The notes: a model not told the origin generated them from the sequence alone. Counted from the first letter of the stretch, positions 3,753 through 37,166 are shown. The stretch: DNA of 64,000 nucleotides from an uncultured Candidatus Saccharibacteria bacterium (GCA_964421635.1 CAYQWZ010000002.1:1749-65748), one strand, 5' to 3'. Numbers and translations: made by a program.

Positions 3753-5519
3753 ATGAAGCGATTGTTATTTGTTTTTATTTATCTTTGGTTGTTTTGGCCG
3801 GTGAGCACTTTGGCGGCTGGTATTGGATGTGAATTTGATAACTACATTACCACTTTTAATTTAAACGAAGACAGCTCTGTTTCTGTAACGGAAAAAATTG
3901 ACTTAGTCTGCCAAGACTATAACGGCATGCATGGAATTTACAGAGTTTTGCCAACCGTTGCGGCGCGGCCAGATGACAATTATAAGTCAACTAAGGTTAG
4001 GCTGGTTTCAATTACAGACGCGGAAGGCAACACTTATGACTATTCAGCCACCAACTATTCAGACACAGTGCAGTACAAAATTGGTGACACAGATATAACA
4101 ATCGACCAGCCTGCAACTTACATCATAAAATATGAGGTGCAAAACGCCATCTTTTATTCAAGCGAATTGGGTAAGGATGTATTCAATTGGAATGTGCAAT
4201 CCTTTTTAAACGATTATGCAACCAACAATGTTGCTATTGAAGTTAATTTTCCAGTTGGGCTAGACGAGCAGAATGTTCATACAAATTTGTATAGTGGATA
4301 CGCTTCGAGCGAAGCTAATCCCTCTCAAGAGAACCCTTATGCAGAAATGTTTTGGAGCGAGAATAAATTAAATATTTTTAACACTAGCGCTTTGGGGGTT
4401 GAGCAGGGCATTACTTTATTCGCCACTTTCGACTCTGGAATTTTCACCTACTATCAGCCGACATTTTGGGAGCAGTACAGCTTACTTTTTCAAATTCTGA
4501 TTGCTCTTATTATTCCTATATTTGTCGGTCGCTATCTGTATGGCATTTGGCGAAAATACGGAGATGACCCAGATGTTGTCGGCTCCATTGCCCCAGCTTT
4601 TGCACCGCCTAAAAAATTGCGACCCTTGGAGCTTGGAATACTACAAAAAGCCACCCCAACGGTTGACAACCAATTAATCACCGCCACCTTAATAGATTTA
4701 GCTGTGCGCGGGTTCATTACCATTGAAGAAGTGAAAAAAGGGCCTTTCAAAACGAAGGATTGGATAATAAAATTAAACACCAAAGCTAAACCAAAAATTA
4801 AACAGCTTCGACCTTTTGAGCAAGAGTTTTTAAACATTATACTGTCGGATTCAAAGTTGAAAGATAACGACGGTAATCAGATTATGGGGGTAGAGAATTA
4901 TCTATCCGATTCTATGAAATCCTATGCGAAAAGTACTAACGCGGTAGCCAAAAAAGCCTTCGACACGCTTAAAGAAGAAGGATTAGTAGACAAGGAAGGC
5001 AAAAAGTATCAGGCTATATTTTTGGGAATTGGCATCTTTCTGTTAATCATTTCATTTCAAATTCTATTCTTTGTTCCGAGTATTGGTTTTGCAATGTTAA
5101 CCAGTGGCATTCTGCTAGTCGTTTTCGGCGCCATTATGCCCCGTCGTACTGAAGAAGGGTCGTTCCTTTATCATGAGTCAAAAGGATTTCAATTGTACAT
5201 GAAAACGGCGGAGAAATACCGTCAGCAGTTTTTTGAAAAAGAAAATATCTTTGAGAAATATTTACCTTACGCCATTGGCTTTGGTATTGTCTCGCAGTGG
5301 AAAAAGGCGGTAGAGAAACTGTATCCTAAGCAGATGAAGAATTATCATCCGGTTTGGTATGTTGGTAGCTCAAACTTTTCGGTTTCTTCTTTCACAAGTT
5401 CAATAAATTCTATTAGTAGTTCTGTTTCGTCGAGCGTGGCCAGCTCGGGCTCAGGTGGAGTTTCCGGCGGTGGATTTTCGGGCGGAGGTGGTGGAGGCGG
5501 CGGCGCTGGTGGTTGGTAA
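3753..5519 (+). CDS. DUF2207 domain membrane protein
   Basis: Signal/TM at the start (MKRLLFVFIYLWLFWPVSTLAA), internal TM segments, and a C-terminal Ser/Gly-rich tail ending GGGGGGGGAGGW typical of DUF2207. Confidence 0.7.
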   Translation: MKRLLFVFIYLWLFWPVSTLAAGIGCEFDNYITTFNLNEDSSVSVTEKIDLVCQDYNGMHGIYRVLPTVAARPDDNYKSTKVRLVSITDAEGNTYDYSATNYSDTVQYKIGDTDITIDQPATYIIKYEVQNAIFYSSELGKDVFNWNVQSFLNDYATNNVAIEVNFPVGLDEQNVHTNLYSGYASSEANPSQENPYAEMFWSENKLNIFNTSALGVEQGITLFATFDSGIFTYYQPTFWEQYSLLFQILIALIIPIFVGRYLYGIWRKYGDDPDVVGSIAPAFAPPKKLRPLELGILQKATPTVDNQLITATLIDLAVRGFITIEEVKKGPFKTKDWIIKLNTKAKPKIKQLRPFEQEFLNIILSDSKLKDNDGNQIMGVENYLSDSMKSYAKSTNAVAKKAFDTLKEEGLVDKEGKKYQAIFLGIGIFLLIISFQILFFVPSIGFAMLTSGILLVVFGAIMPRRTEEGSFLYHESKGFQLYMKTAEKYRQQFFEKENIFEKYLPYAIGFGIVSQWKKAVEKLYPKQMKNYHPVWYVGSSNFSVSSFTSSINSISSSVSSSVASSGSGGVSGGGFSGGGGGGGGAGGW

Positions 5520-6846: not shown

Positions 6847-7615
6847 TAATAGAGTCTAATGTGTAAACAAAATACAATCTGAATGTAGCGCGAAAAAAGT
6901 ATTTTTATTTTTTTCTCGCGCCAGACGGCGCGTTTTTGTTTCTCTAGGCATGAACATTAACAATTAATCTAATTAGTGGAATAATTATCACAATTATTCT
7001 TCCGATATAAAAAAGAAACGTAGAAACGCGTATTCATATTTACAAAAATGTAAGTCATTAATCATAATCTTCAAGCTAAGTTCGCTTAGCCTCAGAGATA
7101 GTGAGCCTCGCAAGAGGTCGAGTAAGAAATGACGTACGAGCACAAGGTGGATGCCTTGGTAGACACGACCGATGAAGGACGTCTGAGCCTGCGATAAGCT
7201 TCGGGGAGCTGGCAACAAAGCTATGATCCGGAGATTTCCGAATGGGGTAACCTATCTACTATATGTAGATGCTAGTGGGTGCGAGTCCCGCTAGACGAAG
7301 ACCTGGTGAACTGAAACATCTTATTAACCAGAGGAAAAGAAATAAATTAGATTCCGTTAGTAGTGGCGAGCGAACGCGGAACAGCCCAAACCACGTTTAT
7401 TAAATGTGGGGTTGTAGGGTAAAAGTGGAGATATCTCGTAGTGAAAAAATTAAGTTATATAACAGAAGGAACCTGGAATAGGACCGCCATAGAGGGTGAT
7501 AGCCCCGTATGTGAAATGTAACTTAACACTATGACTTTTAATCCTGAGTACCACGAAGCACGAGAAACTTTGTGGGAATCTGGGGCGATCACGCTCCAAG
7601 GCTAAATATAGTGTC

Positions 7616-7662
<47 letters not shown>

Positions 7663-8227
7663 GATGAGGGGAGTGAAATAGTATCCTGAAACCTTGATGC
7701 TTCCAAGCAAGTAGGAGCCGGCATGTCCGGTGACTGCGTGCCTTTTGTAGAATGCGCCACCGAGTTAGCCGTAGATTGCTGGTTAAGGCGATATTGCTGT
7801 AGCCATAGGGAAACCGAGTCTGAATAAGGCGAAATATAAGTAGTCTGCGCTAAACCCGAAACCGTGTGAGCTATCCATGACCAGGGTGAACCCTCTTTAA
7901 ACGGAGGGGGAGGCCCGAACCAGGAAGTGTTGCAATACTTTTGGATGAGTTGTGGATAGGGGTAAAATGCCTATCGAACACGGCAATAGCTGGTTCTCTT
8001 CGAAATATATTTAGGTATAGCCGTCAGTGTTCCTGCTTGAGGTAGAGCACTTAATGGTTGCTTTGGGTCTTCGGATCCGACACCAATAAAACTCCGAATT
8101 CAAGTTAGTCATAACTGACGAGTCAGACTGTGGGGGCTAAGCTCCATGGTCGAAAGGGAAAGAGCCCAGATCGCAAGCTAAGGTCCCTAACTAGTATCTC
8201 AGTGGAAAAGGATGTGTTATCTCCAAT

Positions 8228-8258
<31 letters not shown>

Positions 8259-9014
8259 TCCTTTAAAAAGTGCGTAAAAGCTTACTGGTCTAGCGGTTTA
8301 CCGCAAGAGATGATGCGCCGAAAATTTAACGGGGCTTAAGGTACTGGCCGAAGCTGCGAACTTGTTGAATTATTAAAATTTAGCGAGTGGTAGAAGAGCG
8401 TTCGTGTTGTTGTGAAGCAATACCTGTGAGGGGTTGTGGAACGGCACGAAGTGAGAATGGTGGCATGAGTAACGTTTCAGTCAGGTGAGAACCCTGACCT
8501 CCGAATATCCAAGGTTTCCTGGGCAACGAGAATCGACCCAGGGTTAGGCGGCCCTAAGGTGAACCCGAAAGGGGTAGCCGATGGACAGACGGTTAATATT
8601 CCGTCCCCTATTTTAGTGCAACTGTATGACGCATTTAGGTGGTAGCAAGTTCCAATGGGAATATCTTGCTGCGAACTGGGTGACTAGAAAAGTACAGGTT
8701 AAAGGCTAAAATGGACCGTACCGATAACCGACGCCGGTGGATAGGTCGAGTAGACCAAGGAGATCGGAAGAACCTTCGTTAAGGAACTCGGCAAAAAAGC
8801 GTCCGTAACTTCGGGATAAGGACTGCCAACCTAATTTATTAGGTAGGCCGCAGCGAAAGAATCCAGGCGACTGTTTAGCAAAAACACAGCTCCGTGCTAA
8901 CTCGTAAGAGGATGTATACGGAGTGACGCCTGCCCAATGCCAGAAGGTTAAGGGGAATGCTAACATTTTTTGAAGGCATGAACTGAAGCCCTGGTGAATG
9001 GCGGCGGTAACTAT

Positions 9015-9281
9015 TAAGGTTAGTAGTTATAAAATTTGGCCAAATGCTGGAAACTCTGAGTATCTTGCGCTACTATAGAATAAATACTAGTTCGGTATAT
9101 GTTCGGTAGTAAAAATGCGACAAGTGCAGACAATCAGCAGGAAAGACTCTCATATGAAAGAATCCTCAGAGACTATACGCCAAACTCCTGAATAGGAGAT
9201 GATATAGTCCGATCTGTATGGCGACATGCAGAGTTAGGCAGAAATGTCTAGCCCACTCAACTTGAGTGAGTAACAATAATG
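9015..9281 (+). mobile_element. Group-I-like intron 1 in 23S (ORF-less, ~267 nt), at about E. coli position 1917
   Basis: The exon sequence AACTAT|...|AACCGTCCTATGGTAGCG is interrupted. The 5' exon ends in U and the insert ends in G (the group I rule). Confidence 0.6.
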
Positions 9282-9315
9282 AACCGTCCTATGGTAGCGA
9301 AATTCCTTGTCGGGT

Positions 9316-9756
9316 AAATCAAGTCGGAAAAACTTGCCCGAAAGTTGCAGCAATGCAGCTTCAGTAAACTGGCTCAAAACGGTGAAGCCTAAAGTGGTTA
9401 ATCAAATTGTCATGCTGACGGTGCCACAATGGTAATACCGTGGGAAGTCTCTGCTTCGGCAGATGACCCCGTAACGACTGAGACGAAAGTCAAGACTCAC
9501 TACAGGTGGGTAATACGGCCAGCTCTTGCATAAAAAAGGATATATGAATTTTGCAGCTTACATTACCGGTTTCGTAGACGGAGAAGGGTGTTTCATAAAG
9601 AAACATTTGAATCCTCAAGTTTTAAAAGAAATCATTACGACTTCTTATAAAATGAACGATTCTGGGACAAGAAAGTTAAGCCAAGCAAAACTTCTAAGTA
9701 TCTTGTAAGATGAAGGTATAGTCTGATCCAACATGAAAGTGTTGTAACATTCAGTG
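9316..9756 (+). mobile_element. Group-I-like intron 2 in 23S (~441 nt), at about E. coli 1949-1951, carrying a LAGLIDADG remnant
   Basis: Exon CGGGT|...|AAGTTCCGACCCGCACGAATGGCG. It contains the shared core motif AATACCGTGGGAAGT...ACCCCGTAACGACTG closed by a UUCG-loop hairpin instead of an ORF. Confidence 0.6.
9526..9708 (+). pseudogene. Truncated LAGLIDADG homing endonuclease remnant (60 aa) inside intron 2
   Basis: A single LAGLIDADG motif (ITGFVDGEGCF). Too short to be a functional enzyme. Confidence 0.5.
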
Positions 9757-10304
9757 AAGTTCCGACCCGCACGAATGGCGTAACGATCTGGATACTGTCT
9801 CAACGAAGGATCCGGTGAAATTCCACTACCGGTAAAGATGCCGGTTAGATGCAGAAAGACGAAAAGACCCCGTGAAGCTTTACTATAGTTTGGCATTGTT
9901 GTATAACGATGTTTGCGCAGCATAGGTGGGAGACTTTGAAACTCTAACTTCGGTTAGATGGAGTCACCAGTGAGATACCACCTGAGTGTTGATATGCAAC
10001 TCACTCCCGGTTAAGACGGGAAGACAGTGTCTGATGGGTAGTTTAACTGGGGCGGTTGCCTCCTAAATTGTAACGGAGGCGTTCAAAGGTTTACTTGGCC
10101 AGGATGGAAATCTGGCAATAAAGTGTAAAAGCATAAGTAAGCTTGACTGCAAGACCTTCAAGTCGAGCAGATGCGAAAGCAGGATTTAGTGATCCGACAC
10201 TTACATGTGAAAGTGGTGTCGCTCAACGGATAAAAGTTACTCCGGGGATAACAGGCTTATTGCGCCCAATAGCCCATATAGACGGCGCAGTTTGGCACCT
10301 CGAT

Positions 10305-11226
10305 AATCCAAAGAAAGTCGAGAATAAAGTGACTCATAACGGTGGAGCCCTACTGTTTGTTCGGTAAATGTTTGGTATAATATACCAAATAATAGAATAA
10401 CAGGGGTAATACCGTGGGAAGTTACAAGACTGGCCATTATCAGCAGAATTGGTCTAAAATTAAAAGTTCGTTGTCGCTGAATAAACGACAGCAATCCTTA
10501 ATAATAGGCTCAATGCTTGGTGATGGCACTATGCGTATAGGCAAAAACGCAATTAATGCAAATTTCAAAGTGGAACAAGGCTTGAAACAAGAAGCTTATG
10601 TCTATTGGAAATATCGCATTTTGCATCCTTTTGTTTACACCGAACCAAAAATTAGCTATCGGTATGATAGTCAAGGGCAAAGATATCCAAAATCTTGGTG
10701 GTTTAGAACCATTAGATGCTCCCTTTTAACTGAAATATATAATCAGTTTTATACAGGAGAAGGATATCGAACAGGTAGAAAAATTGTACCTAATAATATA
10801 GTTAATTTTCTTGACCCATTAGCCTTATCAGTTTGGATAATGGATGACGGGTCATATAATAGAGGAAGAATAGATATTAGTACTTACTCATTTACTTTAG
10901 TGGAAGTAAAAATGTTAATAAGTGCAATATTTGAGAGATATGATATTCAAATGAATATGTATAAAGATCGTGATAAAGGCTATAGAATATATGCCAATCA
11001 AGATAATACTAAATCATTAATTGAAACAATCTCTCCGTTCATTATTCCTTCTATGAGGTATAAGGTGGGTTTTGTAACCCCGTAACGACTGGATCCTTAG
11101 TTCAGAAAGCTAAGGTGAAGATTCAGAATCTGAAACGATATATATTTCTGAATAACACGTCGCTGCTTGGACAACGCAGTCCAAGTAAAGGTATAGTCTG
11201 CACAGCTAGTAATAGTTGATAATGCG
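10305..11226 (+). mobile_element. Group-I-like intron 3 in 23S (~922 nt), at about E. coli 2504 in the peptidyl-transferase region
   Basis: Exon GGCACCTCGAT|...|GTCGGCTCATCGCATCC, with U before the intron and G at its end. Confidence 0.65.
10414..11085 (+). CDS. Double-motif LAGLIDADG homing endonuclease (223 aa, GTG start) encoded in intron 3
   Basis: Motifs LIIGSMLGDGTM and LSVWIMDDGSY. The ORF begins and ends inside the conserved intron core motifs. Confidence 0.85.
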   Translation: MGSYKTGHYQQNWSKIKSSLSLNKRQQSLIIGSMLGDGTMRIGKNAINANFKVEQGLKQEAYVYWKYRILHPFVYTEPKISYRYDSQGQRYPKSWWFRTIRCSLLTEIYNQFYTGEGYRTGRKIVPNNIVNFLDPLALSVWIMDDGSYNRGRIDISTYSFTLVEVKMLISAIFERYDIQMNMYKDRDKGYRIYANQDNTKSLIETISPFIIPSMRYKVGFVTP

Positions 11227-13043: not shown

Positions 13044-13163
13044 TCTTGGTGATTTTAGCGGTGGGGGTACACCCGTTCTCATTCCGAACACGGAAGTTAA
13101 GCCCACCAGCGCCGATGGTACTTGCCGGGAAACTGGCCGGTAGAGTAGGACATTGCCAAGGCA
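13044..13163 (+). rRNA. rrf: 5S rRNA
   Basis: Conserved CCGAACACGGAAGTTAAGC core and a length of about 120 nt. Confidence 0.85.
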
Positions 13164-22994: not shown

Positions 22995-24212
22995 ATGCGG
23001 CGATACCTGATTGCGACACTACTGGTGCTGGCGGTGCTGGCACCGACACAGGCGGTCGATCCGGTCGAGTGGCTGATGCGACAGACTGGCGCTCGCAGTC
23101 CCGAAGAGTTGGTGGTTGATTTGGCTATCGACACCACTTTTTCCGGATTGATCGAGAAGTGTGAAATCAAGAACCCAAAGGTGAACGCGGCGTTTGATTG
23201 CGCCTTGATTGGACGCGGCGCACCGGTTGGGATTGTTCCGGCTGTGTCTGACCTGCGACGCGAAGAACAGGTCGAGCGAGCGATGGCTGAGATGCTGGGG
23301 CTTGACCCGCGTCTTGCTTTACAGAAGTTGAAAAGTGATGAAGATAGAGATCTCTCGGTCAGTGGCCCCCTGACTGCTTCTTTGATGCAAATGGGCGCTC
23401 TGGTGGTAGCAACGCCGAGAGAAGTGGAAAGAACGAGCCGAGAGCGGGCGGCGGATCGCAATAATGCGGAAGTCCGTCCTGGCTCTGTAGCGCCGCCCGC
23501 TACCATTGAGCGAGCTATCTACTATCTCGTTTGGGTCTTCGAGCCGTTGGCTGGCTTTGAGTACAACGAGTGGTATCAGCTTCTTACTCAGCGCAATGTC
23601 ATCACCTTGACATCAGAGCTGCGCGTGGCCATTAAGCTGGCCGATACAGACGTAACGGTGGCGTACATTACCATCCCTATCGAAATCCGCGAAGTGGGTG
23701 CCAACCGTGACCGCGGTCGGAGCCGACAGTACGCTTCACCGTTTCTGCATGCCATGCTGCGCAAGGCTTCTGACTATTTGGGTCAGATGTTGCATCGAGA
23801 GAATACTCTCTTGGAGCAGCTAGTGGTCGGCAAGTATCGTTATGATCCGGCGGCGGCTTCGACAATCGCTGCTGGTGAAGAAGCGGTTGAGCCTGTTTGG
23901 CCAGTGGTGTCGGGGCAAGTCCGTCCCAAACTGGTTCCGGCTCAAGGCTTGCCCCGACACCGAGTCATCGCCCAGCTAACTGGTGGCTTGACGCTCATCA
24001 GTGCAGGGCGAGCAGACGGATTGCGTGAAGGAAGCGCTGTACAGGTTGGCGGTTATGGTTTCAGCGTCTTCCGAGTAGCTGACAGCTACGCTTTCATTGT
24101 GGCCACCTCTGATAGCGTAGGAGCGCGTGAAGCGTTGCACTACGATGTGCCGGTTCAATTCATTCCGGTCGTCGAGCCGGTACCGGCACAAACTCCGGCA
24201 TCAACAGACTAG
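22995..24212 (+). CDS. Secreted hypothetical protein (405 aa) encoded in a ~60% GC island
   Basis: N-terminal signal peptide MRRYLIATLLVLAVLAPTQA. Strong RBS, consensus promoter and a strong terminator. The opposite-strand ORF 22874..23506 is a shadow. Confidence 0.6.
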   Translation: MRRYLIATLLVLAVLAPTQAVDPVEWLMRQTGARSPEELVVDLAIDTTFSGLIEKCEIKNPKVNAAFDCALIGRGAPVGIVPAVSDLRREEQVERAMAEMLGLDPRLALQKLKSDEDRDLSVSGPLTASLMQMGALVVATPREVERTSRERAADRNNAEVRPGSVAPPATIERAIYYLVWVFEPLAGFEYNEWYQLLTQRNVITLTSELRVAIKLADTDVTVAYITIPIEIREVGANRDRGRSRQYASPFLHAMLRKASDYLGQMLHRENTLLEQLVVGKYRYDPAAASTIAAGEEAVEPVWPVVSGQVRPKLVPAQGLPRHRVIAQLTGGLTLISAGRADGLREGSAVQVGGYGFSVFRVADSYAFIVATSDSVGAREALHYDVPVQFIPVVEPVPAQTPASTD

Positions 24213-24294: not shown

Positions 24295-24672
24295 TTAAAG
24301 ACTACCAGGATTTGAAGCGATGTTGACAACCGTTTGTGCAATCACAACTGCCAAAACAGTAATCACAATACCGACGGCGCCATAGACTAATCCTTTTTTT
24401 GCCTCAGTATATTTCTCTTCGTTGCCGCCAGCGGTAATCATTTTGTATCCGTTAAGACCAGTAAAAACAATGGCGTAAATAGTGGCTAAAGTGAAAAGTA
24501 ATGTTAAAAGATTTAAAAGGATTACTTTTATTTCAACATCTGGGGAAAAAAAACGGTTAATATCAAAAATATCTTTCCAGTCATCATCGGTAACCTGAGC
24601 TTGTGCTTTAAGAGGAACGAGAAAAGATAAATAGATTATTAGTTTGGTAAATTTTTTCATTAGACAGTTCAT
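24295..24672 (-). CDS. Pilin-like small membrane protein, paralog 1 (VirB2/T4SS-pilin-like topology)
   Basis: Signal peptide, then two hydrophobic helices with the conserved loop motif ITAGGNEEK...AKKGLVYGAVGIVI shared across the array. Confidence 0.5.
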   Translation of the reverse strand: MNCLMKKFTKLIIYLSFLVPLKAQAQVTDDDWKDIFDINRFFSPDVEIKVILLNLLTLLFTLATIYAIVFTGLNGYKMITAGGNEEKYTEAKKGLVYGAVGIVITVLAVVIAQTVVNIASNPGSL

Positions 24673-24965
24673 ATTCCTTGAGCAGCGTTTATAACTGCGC
24701 CAACCATTACATACATTAGGGCTATTACTACTAAACCGACAATGGCGTAGGTAATCATTAGTTTAGCCTTTGTAGTTTTTTCGTCGTCTCCACCGGCGGA
24801 AATATAGGTGATGCCAGCTGATACTATTACCACAATGGCTGAAACAGTCGCAATGTATAAGAAAAGATTAATAAATAAATTAAACACCTCATTGGGGGAG
24901 TTTACAGTAAACCTAGGTAGAGTACCAAAGATGTTAAATTTTTCAAAATCATCTGTTGCTGCCAT
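24669..24965 (-). CDS. Pilin-like small membrane protein, paralog 2
   Basis: ISAGGDDEKTTKAKLMITYAIVGLVVIAL motif; 4-nt overlap with its neighbour. Confidence 0.5.
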   Translation of the reverse strand: MAATDDFEKFNIFGTLPRFTVNSPNEVFNLFINLFLYIATVSAIVVIVSAGITYISAGGDDEKTTKAKLMITYAIVGLVVIALMYVMVGAVINAAQGI

Positions 24966-25028
24966 ACATCTATTCTATCAAATAAAAACCGGGTTTATTC
25001 CACCCCGATTTTTATATGAATCTTATTA

Positions 25029-25421
25029 TTAAGCTGCTGGATCAAAGAACCCACCTCCTCCAGGTGTGCCTATTGAACCAGTAACAGCACCAACAATTAC
25101 ATAAGCTAGAGCAATAATTACTAAGCCAATAATGGCGTTAACAATTCCTTTTCTAGCACCATCTGCTTTTTCAGGGTCTCCACCAGCAGTAATATAGTTA
25201 ATACCTGACATGACAAGGTATATAATAGCCATTATAGTTGCTACCCAGAAGATAATATTCAGAACTTTTGATACAGTATCTGACAAAGAACCTGAAGAAG
25301 TTGCTGGTTGAATCGCATTAACACCACCAACTGTCTCAACACCTTGAGCAAAAGCTGCCAAAGGTGTGGCTACGACTGAAGCTACTGCCAAAGGACCGTA
25401 CATATATTTTGATAGTTTCAT
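25029..25421 (-). CDS. Pilin-like small membrane protein, paralog 3
   Basis: Signal peptide plus the ITAGGDPEKADGARKGIVNAIIGLVIIAL motif. Confidence 0.5.
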   Translation of the reverse strand: MKLSKYMYGPLAVASVVATPLAAFAQGVETVGGVNAIQPATSSGSLSDTVSKVLNIIFWVATIMAIIYLVMSGINYITAGGDPEKADGARKGIVNAIIGLVIIALAYVIVGAVTGSIGTPGGGGFFDPAA

Positions 25422-25451
25422 AACTTTTTCTACTTATTTGTAACTTATTTT

Positions 25452-25748
25452 TTAACTTACTGTATCAATAAATCCTACTAAATTTTTGGCAATCACTAGG
25501 CTCAGAGTGATGAGAACTATTCCCCAAATGCTATACATAATAGACTTTTTGGCTTTTTCGACCTGTTCTTCATTGCCCTGCGATTGCATCAATCTCATAC
25601 TATTATACACCAAAAAACCAATAGCTATGGCCCCAGCAATCAGTAACACATTGTTAATAGTCTTTGTGCCTAAATCAGTAATAACATCGACTATAGATAC
25701 CGGATTATCTTCAGGTCCAGGTGTTTTTACAATACTATTTGGATCCAT
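25452..25748 (-). CDS. Pilin-like small membrane protein, paralog 4
   Basis: MQSQGNEEQVEKAKKSIMYSIWGIVLITL motif. Confidence 0.45.
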   Translation of the reverse strand: MDPNSIVKTPGPEDNPVSIVDVITDLGTKTINNVLLIAGAIAIGFLVYNSMRLMQSQGNEEQVEKAKKSIMYSIWGIVLITLSLVIAKNLVGFIDTVS

Positions 25749-25844
25749 AGGTCCTCCTTCTTATTGAATGATTATGTAGTTGACTAGTCAAGTGTATAAG
25801 CGGTTATTGATAAATGTAAACAATAATATTTAGCTGTGGTACTT

Positions 25845-26201
25845 TTAAATAGGATTTGGAGAAATTAACTGATTAGCACCAGCTAAGGTAACAATTATTC
25901 GGGACATTACTATTACAGCTAATCCGGTGATTACGGCAATAATGGCTTGTTTAGATTTTGCGGGCCTATCTTCAGAGCTTCCCGGTAATAAATAAATTAA
26001 CCCAGCGTAAACCATTCCGGCCACGGCCAAAGAATAGCCCAACGCAATCATAAACATATATAGATCTCCACCCTCTACTACTAAAGCCGTTAAGTCTTCC
26101 AATTTTGGCGCTTGGTTGGTGCCAGTACCAGCATCTTGGGCTAAAGCAATATTAGGTAGTAAAGACCAAAGAGCAGCTAAGATATATTTTTTATTTCTCA
26201 T
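25845..26201 (-). CDS. Pilin-like small membrane protein, paralog 5 (start taken at M12)
   Basis: Signal peptide MRNKKYILAALWSLLPNIALA and the LLPGSSEDRPAKSKQAIIAVITGLAVIV motif. An ATGA overlap with the upstream gene supports this start. Confidence 0.45.
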   Translation of the reverse strand: MRNKKYILAALWSLLPNIALAQDAGTGTNQAPKLEDLTALVVEGGDLYMFMIALGYSLAVAGMVYAGLIYLLPGSSEDRPAKSKQAIIAVITGLAVIVMSRIIVTLAGANQLISPNPI

Positions 26202-27148
26202 CGTAAATATTTTATAACAAAATCTACTATCCATTTAGATAGCAGTATTATTACTGTACCGTAAACTGCCCAAGTGAGGTTCTTTTTGGCCTGTTCGGCC
26301 TGCTCATCACTATCAGCCACTAGCAGTAAAATACCAGAATAAATAATCATAACGACTAAGAAAAAGCCGGCTAAAATAAGAAGGATTTCAATAAATCTTT
26401 GAATTAGAGGAATTTCTACTCCTGCAGGTTCAAGCAAGGTGTTGATAGTATCTAGTGTAATGGTGCCGAAAATTGGTGCGCTTGGCGGAGTAAAGGTCCC
26501 TGCGCCTGCACCACCGTCAGCATCATCGTCAGCATCGTCAGCATCGTCATCAGTTGCATCTTCGTGAATGGCAACAGTCTTTATATCAATTTCTCTCGAT
26601 AAGCCACAATCATTATTACCGGCTAAAGAGAACACATTTTCACCATGGCCAAACATTAATAAAGCCATCATCTTTTTTTCGCCTGCTGACTCAAATAAGT
26701 AATTTACGCTTAGACGAACAGCCCTGTTAGTAACTGATATTTCATTACCCGATAACGAAGGAGAAACGACATCAATAGTGCTTGAGTTAGACCTTTCAAC
26801 TGTATATCTATCATAACCTTGTGCTTCATGATTTAGATTTATTGAACCAACAAACCAGTCTCCGTTGGTACCATCTGCTTGTAAATCTTGGCACGCTTGG
26901 ATTGCATTACCGCTAACATCATAATCACCAGTTTGTTTAATGAAAACCACTCTTACTTGGAAAGCTTCAGTTTCTGTTGGTGTTGGCAAGTTGGACAAAT
27001 TTACAAACGCGTTAATCTCTTTTGTCTCTGATGACGAAGCCACATTTTCAAAATAAATATTTGGAATAGTCTGAGCTAAAACAGCAGTTGGCAGTAACAT
27101 AAAAATAACTAGCCCAAAAATAAACTTTATTTTTTTATAAATTTTCAT
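26198..27148 (-). CDS. Larger pilin-like protein (316 aa) with an N-terminal extracellular domain, an acidic DADDADDDAD repeat and a C-terminal pilin-like module
   Basis: Signal peptide; C-terminal LLVADSDEQAEQAKKNLTWAVYGTVIILL motif. 9-nt tandem repeats encode the acidic stretch. Confidence 0.45.
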   Translation of the reverse strand: MKIYKKIKFIFGLVIFMLLPTAVLAQTIPNIYFENVASSSETKEINAFVNLSNLPTPTETEAFQVRVVFIKQTGDYDVSGNAIQACQDLQADGTNGDWFVGSINLNHEAQGYDRYTVERSNSSTIDVVSPSLSGNEISVTNRAVRLSVNYLFESAGEKKMMALLMFGHGENVFSLAGNNDCGLSREIDIKTVAIHEDATDDDADDADDDADGGAGAGTFTPPSAPIFGTITLDTINTLLEPAGVEIPLIQRFIEILLILAGFFLVVMIIYSGILLLVADSDEQAEQAKKNLTWAVYGTVIILLSKWIVDFVIKYLR

Positions 27149-33034: not shown

Positions 33035-33186
33035 GGTGTTTTTTTACAGCAGCTGGGGAGTAATCCTTTAGCGACTGTCTAAGCTTTATTCTAACTGGTT
33101 AGGATTTTGGGAGCAAATGGGTCCTTAATGAAATTATAGGATTATAAGAGTACTATTTCGACGGTAATAATCGACTCCAAAACAGG

Positions 33187-33215
33187 TTGACAAACCTGTT
33201 ATATCCTGCTATGTT
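33187..33215 (+). promoter_or_regulatory. Promoter-like TTGACA-17nt-TATGTT overlapped by the inverted repeat AACAGGTT...AACCTGTT, upstream of the DGR target gene
   Basis: Seen directly. The palindrome arms lie at 33181-33188 and 33193-33200. Confidence 0.45.
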
Positions 33216-33290
33216 AGTCACGATCTAAAAGGATCCATCCATGTCAGCTAGGAATAGGCCTACGCTCACATGTATGCAGGAGTGAACAAA

Positions 33291-34277
33291 ATGCAACGGG
33301 AACCAATGTCGGAAGGCGACTTGGCAGACGCCAAGCGCATACTGACTCAACCCCTGGAAGGCGTCAGCCACGAGGGGTGGCAGTTGCTCAAGACGCGGCT
33401 CAGTGGTGTCATGCAGCAGATCGGCGACATCGGCCGCGCGGTGGAGCAGGAGCTGAAGATCCAGCAACTGCTGGGTAAGTCCGTCCTGCCCCTGACCGCA
33501 CTGCCCGAGGGCGGTTACTGTCGGGCCAACACGTCGTTGGTCTACGACTTGACCAACCGGCTGAGCCTTGACGAGCGGTTCGACCTGCTGGCGGTGCTGA
33601 TGGGCAATTTCGGCATCGACCGCTCCCAGCTCGATCTGGGCGTCGCGCCCGAGGGCGAATCCGGCTGGACGACCATGCTGACGGTTAACCCCGTCAACCT
33701 GGCCACGAAGCTGGGTCTCTCGGTCGTCCTGTCCGGCCTCGACAACGCCAAGAAGGTCGCTGCGGCCGCTACGGCGTACTGCCAGATGGTTGGGCCACTG
33801 GTGCAGAATCTGCCCAAGGCTCGGCCGACGGTCAGCGACTGGCTGCAGGGCCGGCTGGAGAGCGACTACATACTGCTTGAGCCGACCGCTGGTCAGCGCT
33901 GGCAGAACGTGGCCGTGCAGGAGCCGAACCGACCGCTCGTGGTGCGCCAGATGCGGTGCAATCCTGCGACCTGGTTTGCCAACGAGAGTGCGATCTACTC
34001 CCTGTCGCCGGACAACGTCTGTCACTTCACGGCGACCGATGTACAAATCGGCGACCTAGTGAATTTCGCCTGTCTGGCGGTCACCGAACCCTGGGTCTGC
34101 CAGGGCATCGCTGCGGGCACAGCGCCCCGGATCGACATTTCCGGGTGCCGCGTGTTCGACGATGACGGGTGGTCGGACTCGCCGTACTGCTGCCAGGGCG
34201 ACGATGGGGCATGGCTCAACTGCCATTGGGCTGACGATGCCAACGGCGACTACGGTTCGTTGCTCCTCCGGGAGTAA
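33291..34277 (+). CDS. DGR target (variable) protein. GC-rich (~62%), no signal peptide, with a Cys-rich variable region at its C-terminus.
   Basis: ORF 33270..34277, with the ATG at 33291 preceded by AGGAG. The last 40 codons coincide with VR. The opposite-strand ORF 33225..34046 is a shadow. Confidence 0.75.
   Translation: MQREPMSEGDLADAKRILTQPLEGVSHEGWQLLKTRLSGVMQQIGDIGRAVEQELKIQQLLGKSVLPLTALPEGGYCRANTSLVYDLTNRLSLDERFDLLAVLMGNFGIDRSQLDLGVAPEGESGWTTMLTVNPVNLATKLGLSVVLSGLDNAKKVAAAATAYCQMVGPLVQNLPKARPTVSDWLQGRLESDYILLEPTAGQRWQNVAVQEPNRPLVVRQMRCNPATWFANESAIYSLSPDNVCHFTATDVQIGDLVNFACLAVTEPWVCQGIAAGTAPRIDISGCRVFDDDGWSDSPYCCQGDDGAWLNCHWADDANGDYGSLLLRE
34152..34271 (+). repeat. DGR variable repeat (VR) at the 3' end of the target gene
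   Basis: A ~120-nt near-copy of TR (34628-34747). All ~17 mismatches fall where TR has A (A to G mostly, also A to T and A to C). Confidence 0.85.
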
Positions 34278-34304
34278 CTTCGGTCTTCGGAACTCGAACC
34301 CTTG

Positions 34305-34318: not shown

Positions 34319-34627
34319 TGGAAACTGGACTCGCGGTCGTGCTGACGAAAGTCGGCGCGGCCGCGTTTTACATTTAGCATGTAGCGCTCGACTTGGTTCT
34401 TGAAACAAGTTACAATTAATCTTGATATTAGGTCAGTGAGCGGCAATTTAAGGATTTCCGTCACCGAAATCACGCTTCTGCCATTCAGCAGAGTTGAATC
34501 ATCTACGGATGTTTCAAGCGTCAAGGCAGTAAGGGTACTCCGTACTCAATCCAAGAATAACGCAAAATAAATAGACAGGTAGTAGATAGTACTTTGCTAC
34601 CAGTGACATAGATAGGGTTGGGTGCAA

Positions 34628-34747
34628 GTGTTCAACGATGACAAATGGTCAAACTCGCCATACTGCAACCAGAACGACGATGAGGCATGGCTCAACAACA
34701 ATTGGGCTGACAATGCCAACGACAACTACGGTTCGTTGCTCCTCCGG
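34628..34747 (+). repeat. DGR template repeat (TR), non-coding and Asn-codon-rich (translates to VFNDDKWSNSPYCNQNDDEAWLNNNWADNANDNYGSLLLR)
   Basis: Matches VR except at A positions. 10 of the 12 variable codons are AAC/AAT in TR. Followed by a stop and no ORF. Confidence 0.85.
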
Positions 34748-34754
34748 TAGTACC

Positions 34755-35123
34755 TTAGCTCAAACTTCGTATCCATCCTCCAAGCATCTTGCCGATCTCC
34801 TGCAATTGCTCCTGGAGGGTGAGATACTTAGTCATATTTAAACATTTTGTTTCGTAAGCTAAACGAACTAACAGCTTAAGCAGGTCAAGTTTGGCGCTTA
34901 GTGGTAAGAGTTGTTGTTTGCGCAAACCTTTTGGTAGACTATTAGTCAACAACAATCCTTTGAGCAAGCCTAAAGTTGTAGTCTGTAGTCTCTCACCTAG
35001 TGAATAACGTTCAACTTTCGGAAAAAGATGAATCCACAAATGCAACTGCCGATAGAAATCGAACAACTTCCCGACAATAGGAATGGGGGTAAAGCTGTCG
35101 GGGGGGGTATTCTTGGTAGTCAT
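34755..35123 (-). CDS. Avd-like accessory variability determinant (four-helix-bundle / 23S rRNA IVS protein family)
   Basis: LFPKVERYSLGERLQ...LSAKLDLLKLLVRLAYETKCLN...LQEIGKMLGGWIRSL matches the four-helix-bundle (TIGR02436-like) pattern to which Avd belongs. Opposite strand to TR and RT; its 5' end overlaps the RT2 start region. Confidence 0.6.
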   Translation of the reverse strand: MTTKNTPPDSFTPIPIVGKLFDFYRQLHLWIHLFPKVERYSLGERLQTTTLGLLKGLLLTNSLPKGLRKQQLLPLSAKLDLLKLLVRLAYETKCLNMTKYLTLQEQLQEIGKMLGGWIRSLS

Positions 35124-36170
35124 TTTAATATCAGTTTTGAGCGAGTTATTTCTTTAGAGAATTTGATTACAGCTTGGTATGAATTTCGTCGTGGCAAGAG
35201 CAAAAGAATCGACGTTCAACAATTTGCCAACAATCTAGAAGATAACATATTTGCCCTACATAACCAACTTAAAAATGGTTTGTATAAACACGATCATTAC
35301 AGTCAATTTAATATTAACGACCCCAAACCTCGTCTGATCAGCAAAGCTACTGTTAAAGACCGTTTGGTTTACCACGCCCTTTACAGGGCGCTTTATCCTT
35401 TATTCGACAAGACATTTATTTACGATTCGTATTCCTGTCGCAAGAACAAAGGAACGCATAAGGCTTTTCAACGTTTAAGAAAATTAATTTTGTCTTGCAG
35501 TCAGAACTACACCCAACCGTGCTTTGCACTCAAATGTGACATTTATCGCTTCTTTGATTCGATTGATCACAATACTTTGCTTAGTCTAATTGCTAAAAAA
35601 GTACATGACTCGAAACTACTGTTACTTATCAAAAACATCATTGATAGTTTCGAAACTTCTTCTAGTAAAGGTATGCCAATTGGCAATCTTACTTCCCAAC
35701 TCTTCGCTAACATTTATATGGATCCACTAGATAAGTTTATTAAACACAGATTAAAAGCCAAGCATTATCTTCGCTATGCCGATGACTTCTTGTTATTATC
35801 TAACTCACCAACAGTTCTTCATGGTTATCTCAAAGAGATCAACGCTTTTGTGCAAGATAGGCTGAAACTCAAGTTGCATCCTCATAAAATTAGTCTACGA
35901 AAACTGTCTTGGGGAATTGATTTTGTTGGTTATGTGGCTTTGCCTTATCAAACTAAGCCTAGAAACAAGACTGTTAAAAGAATATTTAAGAAGATTGAAG
36001 ATAATATTTACCACGAAAATATTGACGCGACGTTTAATTCTTATTTGGGTTATTTACAACATGCTGATTCAGAAGATCTGCAATTAGCACTTTTAGACCG
36101 CTGGAAATCGGTATCCCACACCGGTTATGGTAATAGATTATTGACTGACCATCGACCTTTTTACAGATAG
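35028..36170 (+). CDS. Reverse transcriptase, DGR-type (RT2)
   Basis: Motifs FIYDSYSCRKNKGTHKA, MPIGNLTSQLFANIYMD ([I/L]GxxxSQ) and YADDF. Adjacent TR/VR pair. Confidence 0.85.
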   Translation: MNPQMQLPIEIEQLPDNRNGGKAVGGGILGSHFNISFERVISLENLITAWYEFRRGKSKRIDVQQFANNLEDNIFALHNQLKNGLYKHDHYSQFNINDPKPRLISKATVKDRLVYHALYRALYPLFDKTFIYDSYSCRKNKGTHKAFQRLRKLILSCSQNYTQPCFALKCDIYRFFDSIDHNTLLSLIAKKVHDSKLLLLIKNIIDSFETSSSKGMPIGNLTSQLFANIYMDPLDKFIKHRLKAKHYLRYADDFLLLSNSPTVLHGYLKEINAFVQDRLKLKLHPHKISLRKLSWGIDFVGYVALPYQTKPRNKTVKRIFKKIEDNIYHENIDATFNSYLGYLQHADSEDLQLALLDRWKSVSHTGYGNRLLTDHRPFYR

Positions 36171-36294: not shown

Positions 36295-36371
36295 TGGTAC
36301 GCCTGACAGGATTTGAACCTGTGACCTTCGGCTCCGCAAGCCGACGCTCTATCCAACTGAGCTACAGGCGC
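36295..36371 (-). tRNA. tRNA-Arg (anticodon GCG as folded by hand)
   Basis: 77-nt cloverleaf with an encoded CCA. Anticodon loop TTGCGGA. 7-bp acceptor stem and T-arm GGTTCAAATCC. Confidence 0.65.
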
Positions 36372-36377
36372 AAAAAA

Positions 36378-36470
36378 TGGCGGAGGGTGTGGGACTTGAA
36401 CCCACAAGACGGCAATTAAACCATCTACGGTTTAGCAAACCGCTGCCTTACCAATTCGGCGCAACCCTCC
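36378..36470 (-). tRNA. tRNA-Ser (anticodon GCT), long variable arm
   Basis: 93 nt, anticodon loop TTGCTAA, encoded CCA, T-arm GGTTCAAGTCC. Confidence 0.7.
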
Positions 36471-36565
36471 ACAGGTGTCTATATCCTATTATATAGCTTC
36501 ATCATTAATACCTGAAAAACGGGCATTATTCAAGCGCCCAAAGCCCAAAAAAACAAAACAAGAGA

Positions 36566-37051
36566 TCAAAATTTAATTATTCGGTTGATAGTATCTGAGA
36601 AAAATTCTGTTCGTCTGTTTTCTTCGGGTAAATAACGGCCAATGACATCGCGCACTTTGTCGATTTCTTGATCTTGTATTAAGGCTGAGACAGGCGTGCC
36701 GACCCCTTTTCTATCAAAATCTATAGTGACATAATCGGCGTGATCGGTAAGATGGAACGATTTAAAATCTTCATAAGAGTGCTCATTATCTCCAATAGAA
36801 AAAGATTCCGGACCAATTTTTATCTGTATAGTTTCGGGCTTTTTAAAAGAAATTTTATATAAAGCAAAAGCGCCAACAACAATCATCAAAATAGTTGTCC
36901 AGTCTAATCCTTTAGCAAAATAAAGGATTACAAGCGCAATAACCACGACAATGCTGATATTCAAAAACCAGCTACCAGACTTTTTATAATAATAAAACTC
37001 TGGCGCTCGCCAAGATAGGGTGGAAACGGGTTTAGAATTACTTGCTGCCAT
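36566..37051 (-). CDS. Hypothetical membrane protein (two TM helices, C-terminal soluble domain)
   Basis: ORF-track ORF with hydrophobic segments IVVVIALVILYF and ILMIVVGAFALY. Confidence 0.5.
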   Translation of the reverse strand: MAASNSKPVSTLSWRAPEFYYYKKSGSWFLNISIVVVIALVILYFAKGLDWTTILMIVVGAFALYKISFKKPETIQIKIGPESFSIGDNEHSYEDFKSFHLTDHADYVTIDFDRKGVGTPVSALIQDQEIDKVRDVIGRYLPEENRRTEFFSDTINRIIKF

Positions 37052-37076
37052 CTGGAATTATTATAGCATTTTTATT

Positions 37077-37166
37077 TGGCGGAGAGGGTGGGATTTGAAC
37101 CCACGAGACGCGTGAACGCCTACCGCTTTTCGAGAGCGACCCATTCAACCACTCTGGCACCTCTCC
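37077..37166 (-). tRNA. tRNA-Ser (anticodon CGA), long variable arm
   Basis: 90 nt, anticodon loop CTCGAAA, encoded CCA, T-arm GGTTCAAATCC. Confidence 0.65.

Follow-up and report, generated by a model that had tools for sequence, protein, structure and literature searches.

A GC-rich target gene, decoupled in composition from reverse transcriptase and host, in a diversity-generating retroelement of Candidatus Saccharibacteria

We analysed a stretch of 64,000 nucleotides from an uncultured Candidatus Saccharibacteria bacterium (GCA_964421635.1, CAYQWZ010000002.1:1749-65748; hereafter the window), which carries a diversity-generating retroelement (DGR), and focused on the gene that this element diversifies (33291-34277, + strand; 328 aa). 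The gene is the hypervariable target of a standard DGR of the candidate phyla radiation (CPR) type, and its high GC content is shared by the entire target superfamily of this CPR DGR clade and is not peculiar to the gene or the genome. Our preferred reading, held with moderate confidence, is that the gene encodes an ordinary CPR DGR variable protein and that its GC-richness belongs to a horizontally exchanged pool of target alleles rather than to the host.

Results

A CPR-type DGR with adenine-specific differences between repeats

The gene is assigned to a DGR because its variable repeat (VR) and template repeat (TR) differ only at TR adenines, because the reverse transcriptase (RT), the accessory protein Avd and the architecture are as expected, and because the same cassette is found in L001, a Logan contig of 48.6% GC whose RT, Avd and target are 65%, 71% and 59% identical to those of the window. 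A direct repeat of 134 nt joins 34152-34285, on the VR side, to the TR at 34628-34761 (+ strand), with an offset of 476 nt. Within its 120-nt core, the VR (34152-34271, + strand) faces TR positions 34628-34747, in which there are 36 adenines; the VR comprises 40 codons, 21 of them mutable, giving about 1e19 possible proteins, and the TR has a tail resembling the TR counterpart (IMH*) of the initiation of mutagenic homing (IMH) sequence. All 18 VR/TR mismatches within the open reading frame (ORF) fall at TR adenines (15 A>G, 2 A>T and 1 A>C), without a single non-adenine mismatch before 34272, and the same holds for 25 of the 26 mismatches in L001. These data bear out the first-pass annotation of this DNA, which had called the gene a DGR target and had quoted a C-terminus that we recover exactly. 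No VR or TR beyond this pair was found when additional VRs were sought within the window.

The target ORF ends at 34277 (+ strand) and has two candidate starts, at 33270 (335 aa) or 33291 (328 aa). The latter is favoured by an AGGAG at 33278-33282, by the N-termini of homologues and by a model of the leader RNA, described below, that ends at this ATG. The VR ends at the target stop codon and is followed by an IMH-like end and a GC-rich inverted repeat, as expected of a DGR. The invariant 3' end of the VR (34249-34285, + strand) differs from the TR at 34272, 34277 and 34283, which are not adenine positions, and at 34281, where the difference is of the adenine type; these four sites mark the end of VR/TR homology. 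By analogy with the Bordetella phage DGR, this invariant end would play an IMH-like role. In the position of the post-IMH inverted repeat lies a GC-rich 15-bp hairpin followed by a T run (34332-34365, + strand), which is terminator-like, shows compensatory changes relative to L001 and forms the 3' edge of the GC-rich block considered below. Between the hairpin and the TR is a conserved non-coding spacer (34366-34627, + strand), in which promoter-like sites occur at 34388-34429. The window, L001 and a further contig, L027, share long identical stretches there, with up to 98% identity between L001 and L027, though the window RT is only 65% identical to that of L001. The spacer is probably the (structured) 5' part of a TR-containing DGR RNA in B3-type elements.

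The avd gene (34755-35123, - strand) matches Pfam bAvd (E=1.1e-16) and NCBIfam DivGenRetAVD (E=7e-21); its 5' end overlaps the start of the RT gene, and its orientation is the same in L001 and L012. The RT gene (35028-36170, + strand; 36.5% GC) matches RVT_1 (E=1.9e-25), and its translation carries IGNLTSQ and YADD (in RYADDF). The motifs (I/L)GxxxSQ and YxDD define DGR RTs. The closest RTs among species-representative genomes come from metagenome-assembled genomes of Saccharibacteria, Kazan, Berkelbacteria, Paceibacterota and Uhrbacteria. The order TR-(avd)-RT with avd on the minus strand corresponds to architecture B3, the TR-(avd)-RT arrangement with reversed avd that accounts for 90% of CPR DGRs (Wu 2018, PMC5758913).

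High GC content is shared by the target superfamily and decoupled from RT and host

The target has 63.6-64.1% GC against 39.5% for the remainder of the window, and its GC content at third codon positions (GC3; 0.82-0.83) lies about 8 standard deviations above the mean of the other ORFs of at least 200 aa (0.35, standard deviation 0.056). All three codon positions contribute to this difference, at 0.65/0.44/0.83 in the target against 0.43-0.58/0.31-0.39/0.32-0.39 in its neighbours. A maximum-likelihood fit with two change points places the edges of the GC block at 33310 and 34365, that is, at the start codon and at the end of the post-VR hairpin. At four-fold degenerate sites of the target, A and T have frequencies of 0.05 and 0.10. 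As both are depleted about equally and without strand skew, we exclude adenine mutagenesis of the whole transcript, which would deplete A specifically. An assembly artefact is likewise excluded, since ENA, JGI and NCBI each have an independent assembly of this contig and the pattern recurs in independent loci.

The same step is seen well beyond the window. The L001 target has 67.6% GC and a GC3 of 0.88, and the L001 RT 46.7% GC; in all 11 loci of the target family, the target has 57-68% GC against 39.5-54% in the flanks. We then fetched related CPR cassettes via their RTs and obtained nine with identifiable VR/TR pairs, representing several target families, in which target GC was taken from the part preceding the VR. 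Target GC exceeds RT GC in all nine, by 5.6 to 27 points (Wilcoxon p=0.004), and across these cassettes flank GC correlates with RT GC (r=0.94) far more closely than with target GC (r=0.22). In one of them, L024, the flanks themselves have 62.5% GC and target GC3 reaches 0.91. For the target superfamily as a whole, GC content is about 56-68%, and that of the hosts ranges from 39% to 62%. The GC anomaly noted earlier as a property of this one gene is therefore real and not typical of the source genome, but it extends to the whole target superfamily of the clade.

A universal effect of DGRs is excluded by five phage DGRs that lack a comparable target-versus-RT step: in none of them does target GC3 exceed RT GC3 by more than 5 points, while six of the nine CPR cassettes have an excess of 21-48 points. 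The phages compared have hosts of 28-54% GC, and in the crAss-like phage among them the target and the RT have GC3 values of 0.11 and 0.06.

Three family members were found apart from any visible DGR machinery. Two of them (L011 10001-11008 and L019 10001-11014) have no RT, avd or TR within 7-10 kb, and the third (L005 3352-4332) has none on the available part of its short contig; these are orphan or trans-targeted copies. Their GC excess over the flanks is 10-12 points in L011 and L019, and 6-12 points when L005 is included. The C-terminus of the L019 copy is degenerate, and no family member has a lower GC3 than this copy (0.62).

The window also contains a second GC-rich island made up of a single gene (22995-24212, + strand; 405 aa), with about 57% GC against 36-40% around it. 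Its product has a signal-peptide-like N-terminus, and the gene adjoins pilin genes of a type IV secretion system (T4SS) at 24295-24965 on the minus strand. A homology search with this ORF returned only the match to itself, which makes it an ORFan.

One replacement of a whole target allele between similar backgrounds

A comparison of L001 with L027 points to replacement of the entire target ORF. The two contigs share 84-85% nucleotide identity over 4.2 kb upstream, a region that includes the promoter, a palindrome and helix 1 of the leader, and they are similarly close over 3 kb downstream, where the 180 nt after the stop codon are 90-98% identical. Between these flanks, the target ORFs (L027 4190-5213 and L001 5570-6636) cannot be aligned as DNA. 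Their products are full-length homologues all the same (hhalign probability 97.4%, E=1.3e-11), with 14% identity. The near-identical flanks around targets with only 14% identity therefore make the target ORF look like an exchangeable module, and L001 and L027 carry deeply diverged target alleles swapped into nearly the same background. The edges of the GC block in the window (33310 and 34365) nearly match the replaced segment. The TR, avd and 5' RT region of L001 and L027 have also diverged more than the flanks.

The window and L001 were in addition compared codon by codon. At conserved residues, the targets use the same codon at a frequency of 0.635, against 0.483 expected from codon usage, whereas the RTs show no excess (0.382 against 0.351 expected). 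By the Nei-Gojobori method (NG86), the rates of nonsynonymous (dN) and synonymous (dS) substitution for the targets are 0.335 and 0.724, and dS is saturated for the RTs. These values are consistent with target alleles that share a more recent ancestor than the RTs do, or with constraint on synonymous sites.

A promoter, a palindrome and a structured leader precede the target

The target has its own sigma-70-like promoter (33187-33215, + strand), in which TTGACA (33187) and a TG-extended TATGTT (33215) are separated by a 17-nt spacer and which matches at 10 of 12 positions. Relative to the ATG, six family loci have TTGACA at -101 to -104 and a seventh has it at -116, and the extended -10 box is shared. 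Centred on the -35 hexamer is a palindrome, AACAGGTT-GACA-AACCTGTT (33181-33200), so that the previously proposed promoter overlapped by a palindrome is found as described. In L001 (5498-5522) and L027 (~4130-4155), a palindrome occupies the same position with wholly different arms (GCCCAATCTG-CTTGA-CAGATTGGGC), and in other family members TTGACA is present but no perfect palindrome surrounds it. A palindrome kept in position and changed in sequence suggests a hairpin or a diverged operator.

Downstream of the promoter is a structured 5' leader RNA with four helices (33219-33293, + strand; covariance model E=2e-4). Helix 1 pairs 33222-33226 with 33231-33235, helix 2 pairs 33236-33241 with 33275-33279, helix 3 pairs 33242-33244 with 33266-33270, and helix 4 pairs 33249-33253 with 33258-33262. 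In helix 2, a CCUUGCA segment faces UGCAAGG, so that the pairing involves the Shine-Dalgarno region. The leaders are about 75 nt long, and each folds as a 5' hairpin (GAUCY-N4-RGAUC or variants) followed by a long stem that encloses a second hairpin; the minimum free energy z-scores of 12 leaders range from -0.6 to -2.3.

RNAalifold applied to a MAFFT alignment of the leaders gave no structure, owing to indels, and it was a covariance model that resolved one. This model was built from the leaders of L001 (5543-5615), L003 (121-192) and L019 (9929-10003) and was searched against 224 kb, where it gave six further matches. All six lie directly upstream of target ATGs: in the window, in L011 (9923-10003), L012 (9929-10007) and L016 (276-348), and in two loci with different target alleles, L025 (4204-4271) and L027 (4168-4197). 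In an alignment that was fitted to the structure, and whose pairing and covariation figures are thus biased in its favour, 90.4% of cells are paired; the corresponding figures are 73% for shuffles and 31-46% for slid controls. Double compensatory changes are seen at 13 of the 20 pairs. Per measure, the observed values were reached by 0 or 1 of 500 shuffles. The leader has no match in Rfam. Given its pairing with the Shine-Dalgarno region, it is probably a translational control element by which target translation is gated, and it may represent a new cis-regulatory RNA of CPR DGR targets.

The target protein belongs to a small family without a recognised domain

A word-indexed search with the target returned the query and one homologue (P0002, 59% identity), and an exhaustive HMMER scan of 1.84 billion representatives gave 10 family clusters, all of 317-358 aa. 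The 10 cluster representatives together with one closer homologue from the word-indexed search make up the set of 11 members and loci used throughout. A word search based on their alignment recovered only four members, and a search of genome contigs with the single protein found no related locus. Neither the target nor any of the 11 family members has a match in Pfam, NCBIfam or PDB sequences.

A reasonably confident AlphaFold model of the full-length protein from the 11-sequence alignment (predicted local distance difference test, pLDDT, 80.6; predicted template modelling score, pTM, 0.76) has an ill-defined N-terminal helix followed by an α/β body. Modelling of the C-terminal part by itself (residues 176-328) gave a pLDDT of 44 and no usable fold. 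A Foldseek search of PDB and BFVD with the model gave no match at E<0.1, and hhalign comparison with Mtd-type C-type-lectin (CLec) VR domains from five phages gave no relation. It is plausible from the model that the C-terminal half is a ligand-binding domain of a divergent C-type-lectin-like type that carries the VR on its face. The earlier statement that the VR does not resemble the CLec type stands as far as these database and profile comparisons go; its corollary that the VR is unusual does not, since many CPR VRs are unclassified and fall outside the CLec and Ig classes (Wu 2018, PMC5758913).

With respect to location, no window of 19 residues in the target is hydrophobic enough for a signal peptide or transmembrane (TM) segment, and by the same hydropathy measure this is true of all 11 family members. 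The Kyte-Doolittle score peaks at 1.28 over the whole protein and at 0.14 within the first 60 aa with either candidate start (33291 or the alternative 33270), in agreement with the initial prediction of a protein lacking export signals. That such a target would be exceptional is contradicted by published work, in which CPR DGR targets normally lack a signal peptide, a TM segment and a recognisable domain (Roux 2021, PMC8144416).

The first-pass annotation had also counted four cysteines plus a histidine in the VR and had proposed a metal-binding or disulfide-rich scaffold. The residues are present as listed, except that Cys286 lies outside the VR. The TR encodes VFNDDKWSNSPYCNQNDDEAWLNNNWADNANDNYGSLLLR, and of the VR cysteines only Cys300 is templated unchanged; Cys301, Cys311 and His312 are the present states of mutable AAC/AAT codons. 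From this comparison of the repeats, Cys301, Cys311 and His312 are products of adenine mutagenesis and not parts of a metal or disulfide scaffold. In line with this, the 11 homologues have no conserved Cys/His pattern of a metal or disulfide site: the only shared cysteine columns are C164 (9/11) and C300 (7/11), and the scaffold proposal is not upheld.

Genomic context

In L001 (390-5494) and L027, the target directly follows a T4SS-like operon encoding a TrbC-type pilin, TrbL, a TraC-like protein, a VirB4-type ATPase and an M23 peptidase. The T4SS-pilin genes of the window (~24295-27000) are located 6-9 kb upstream of the target. That this neighbourhood has a bearing on how a variable protein without a signal peptide reaches the surface is pure speculation.

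A 48-nt direct repeat (83% identical) flanks the entire DGR cassette of L001 (5404-5451 and 8551-8598). It is a copy of the 3' terminus of the M23-peptidase gene lying upstream, and L027 contains cross-matching segments; the repeat may be a scar of cassette insertion or duplication. Three tRNA genes (36298-37166) stand directly downstream of the DGR RT in the window. Elsewhere in the window, the 23S rRNA gene (7124-10378) is interrupted by a group I intron (8960-9231), and the 5S rRNA gene is at 13045-13161.

Discussion

The cassette described here resembles the CPR/Patescibacteria DGRs (clade 2 of Roux 2021; B3 of Wu 2018) in the order of target, TR, reversed avd and RT, in having a target without TM segment, signal peptide or Pfam domain, and in having a VR outside the main classes. 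The feature that had drawn attention to the gene, a cytoplasmic, Cys-rich and non-CLec target, thus mostly repeats known traits of CPR DGRs and is ordinary by itself. Three features were not found described in the CPR DGR literature that we examined, namely the decoupling of GC content, the replacement of whole alleles between near-identical backgrounds and the structured leader. The C-type-lectin-fold variable proteins (Mtd, TvpA, TaqVP and the archaeal AvpA) form the named comparison group, and profile comparison with the Mtd type showed no relation to the target in the window. Nor is a cytoplasmic DGR target unprecedented, because targets without export signals are described for cyanobacteria and multicellular bacteria (Vallota-Eastman 2020, PMC7517822; Dore 2024, PMC10907252). 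Those intracellular targets are reported to belong to regulatory or putative antigen-sensor systems, whereas the target in the window has no recognisable N-terminal domain.

In the mechanism that we propose, the RT, working with the Avd encoded in reverse orientation, would copy the TR RNA (34628-34747) into adenine-mutagenised cDNA, which would overwrite the last 40 codons of the target (VR, 34152-34271) and recode up to 21 of them, with about 1e19 possible variants. The diversified VR would sit on the C-terminal face of a soluble protein of 328 aa. Transcription of the target would start from its own sigma-70-type promoter, and pairing of the leader with the Shine-Dalgarno region would gate translation. 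The ORF between the leader and the post-VR hairpin would be an allele cassette that moves between lineages separately from RT and avd; the latter two would follow the composition of the host, and the exchanged pool of targets would not.

Several points weigh against this account. With nine cassettes and 11 family loci, the sample is small, and its members are not phylogenetically independent; allele replacement was seen just once (L001 versus L027), and hydropathy is the one line of evidence on localisation. The data are assembled consensus contigs only. Furthermore, an identical target protein, VR included, occurs in seven contigs (P0004, L005-L010) and another in five (P0006, L012-L015), most of which come from separate samples. 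A possible reason is that these DGRs are quiescent, another that the assemblies have collapsed VR variants. Changes polarised on the window branch (45 GC>AT versus 32 AT>GC) do not differ significantly in number. Finally, exchange alone does not account for a GC-rich pool: every sampled host has a GC content equal to or below that of its target, and a closed pool should drift to the mean GC of its hosts. Candidate causes are unsampled GC-rich CPR reservoirs, GC-biased gene conversion and DGR-linked selection on composition.

One alternative to a shared pool is a recent, one-off transfer that has not yet ameliorated, with a high-GC donor such as the actinobacterial host of a Saccharibacteria-like epibiont. 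A GC3 of 83%, like that of high-GC bacteria, and sharp block edges would both follow from such an event, and the second single-gene GC-rich island in the window (22995-24212), the slight GC>AT excess on the window branch and the existence of one GC-rich CPR host (L024) fit it as well. We nevertheless regard it as unlikely. The composition is indeed atypical, as in a genomic island, but the family comprises only 10 clusters among the 1.84 billion representatives, the collections searched yielded no homologue from a GC-rich donor, and all flanks of at least 1.5 kb carry a CPR-type context or cassette, none of them richer in GC than its target. A single recent event, moreover, cannot explain the step, because the step is common to the co-diverged L001 cassette (RT 65%, target 59% identical) and to other target families.

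GC-biased gene conversion at a recombination hot spot would instead place the cause in the exchange itself: the ORF would repeatedly be exchanged or repaired via the leader and the post-VR spacer, which would serve as conserved arms, and mismatch repair biased towards G and C would raise GC within the tract only. In its favour, recombination with breakpoints at the conserved arms is directly evident, the exchanged segment has the same edges as the GC block, all three codon positions are elevated in GC without strand skew, and dN/dS is relatively high (dN 0.335, dS 0.724, NG86). The step of at least 45 GC3 points is, however, to our knowledge far larger than the effects reported for GC-biased gene conversion in bacteria. 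The gene has no GC gradient along its length, members without an adjacent RT (L011 and L019) are still GC-rich and the polarised counts show no AT>GC excess, so that this cause, too, seems improbable to us. Selection linked to the DGR could also be envisaged, in which an A+T-poor, strongly folding ORF and its 3' hairpin would shield the scaffold-coding part from promiscuous reverse transcription or adenine mutagenesis, or would confine cDNA integration to the VR. Such selection would fit a GC-richness that is independent of host codon usage, even in a host of 62% GC (target GC3 0.91), that is present in several target families of this RT clade and not in five phage DGRs, and that takes in the conserved post-VR hairpin. 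The depletion is not specific to A, which is depleted about as much as T; orphan members without a nearby RT stay GC-rich; phage DGRs work without a GC-rich target; and we found no published mechanism that requires one. We therefore consider DGR-linked selection of this kind very unlikely.

Our preferred reading remains that of an ordinary CPR DGR variable protein drawn from an exchanged, GC-rich allele pool. A stronger version, which we put forward only tentatively and doubt more than we believe, is that the CPR target ORF is a compositionally insulated, exchangeable cassette. A process linked to DGR targets, either GC-biased conversion or selection against A and T, would hold it at ~60-68% GC regardless of the host, whole alleles would swap between the conserved leader and the post-VR hairpin, and an undescribed leader pairing with the ribosome-binding site would gate translation. 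If true, VR hypermutation would be complemented by turnover of alleles as whole genes and by control at the RNA level.

Although the sample behind them is small, the decoupling of GC content, the replacement of alleles and the leader RNA could matter for the DGR field. A GC-rich target decoupled from RT and host offers a cheap compositional marker for CPR targets and points to an unexplained evolutionary force. The occurrence of 14%-identical alleles in near-identical backgrounds implies that target diversity comes from the replacement of whole alleles as well as from VR mutagenesis. The covarying leader that pairs with the ribosome-binding site, in turn, suggests regulated expression of the variable protein, and would provide an experimental handle on when CPR cells deploy such proteins.
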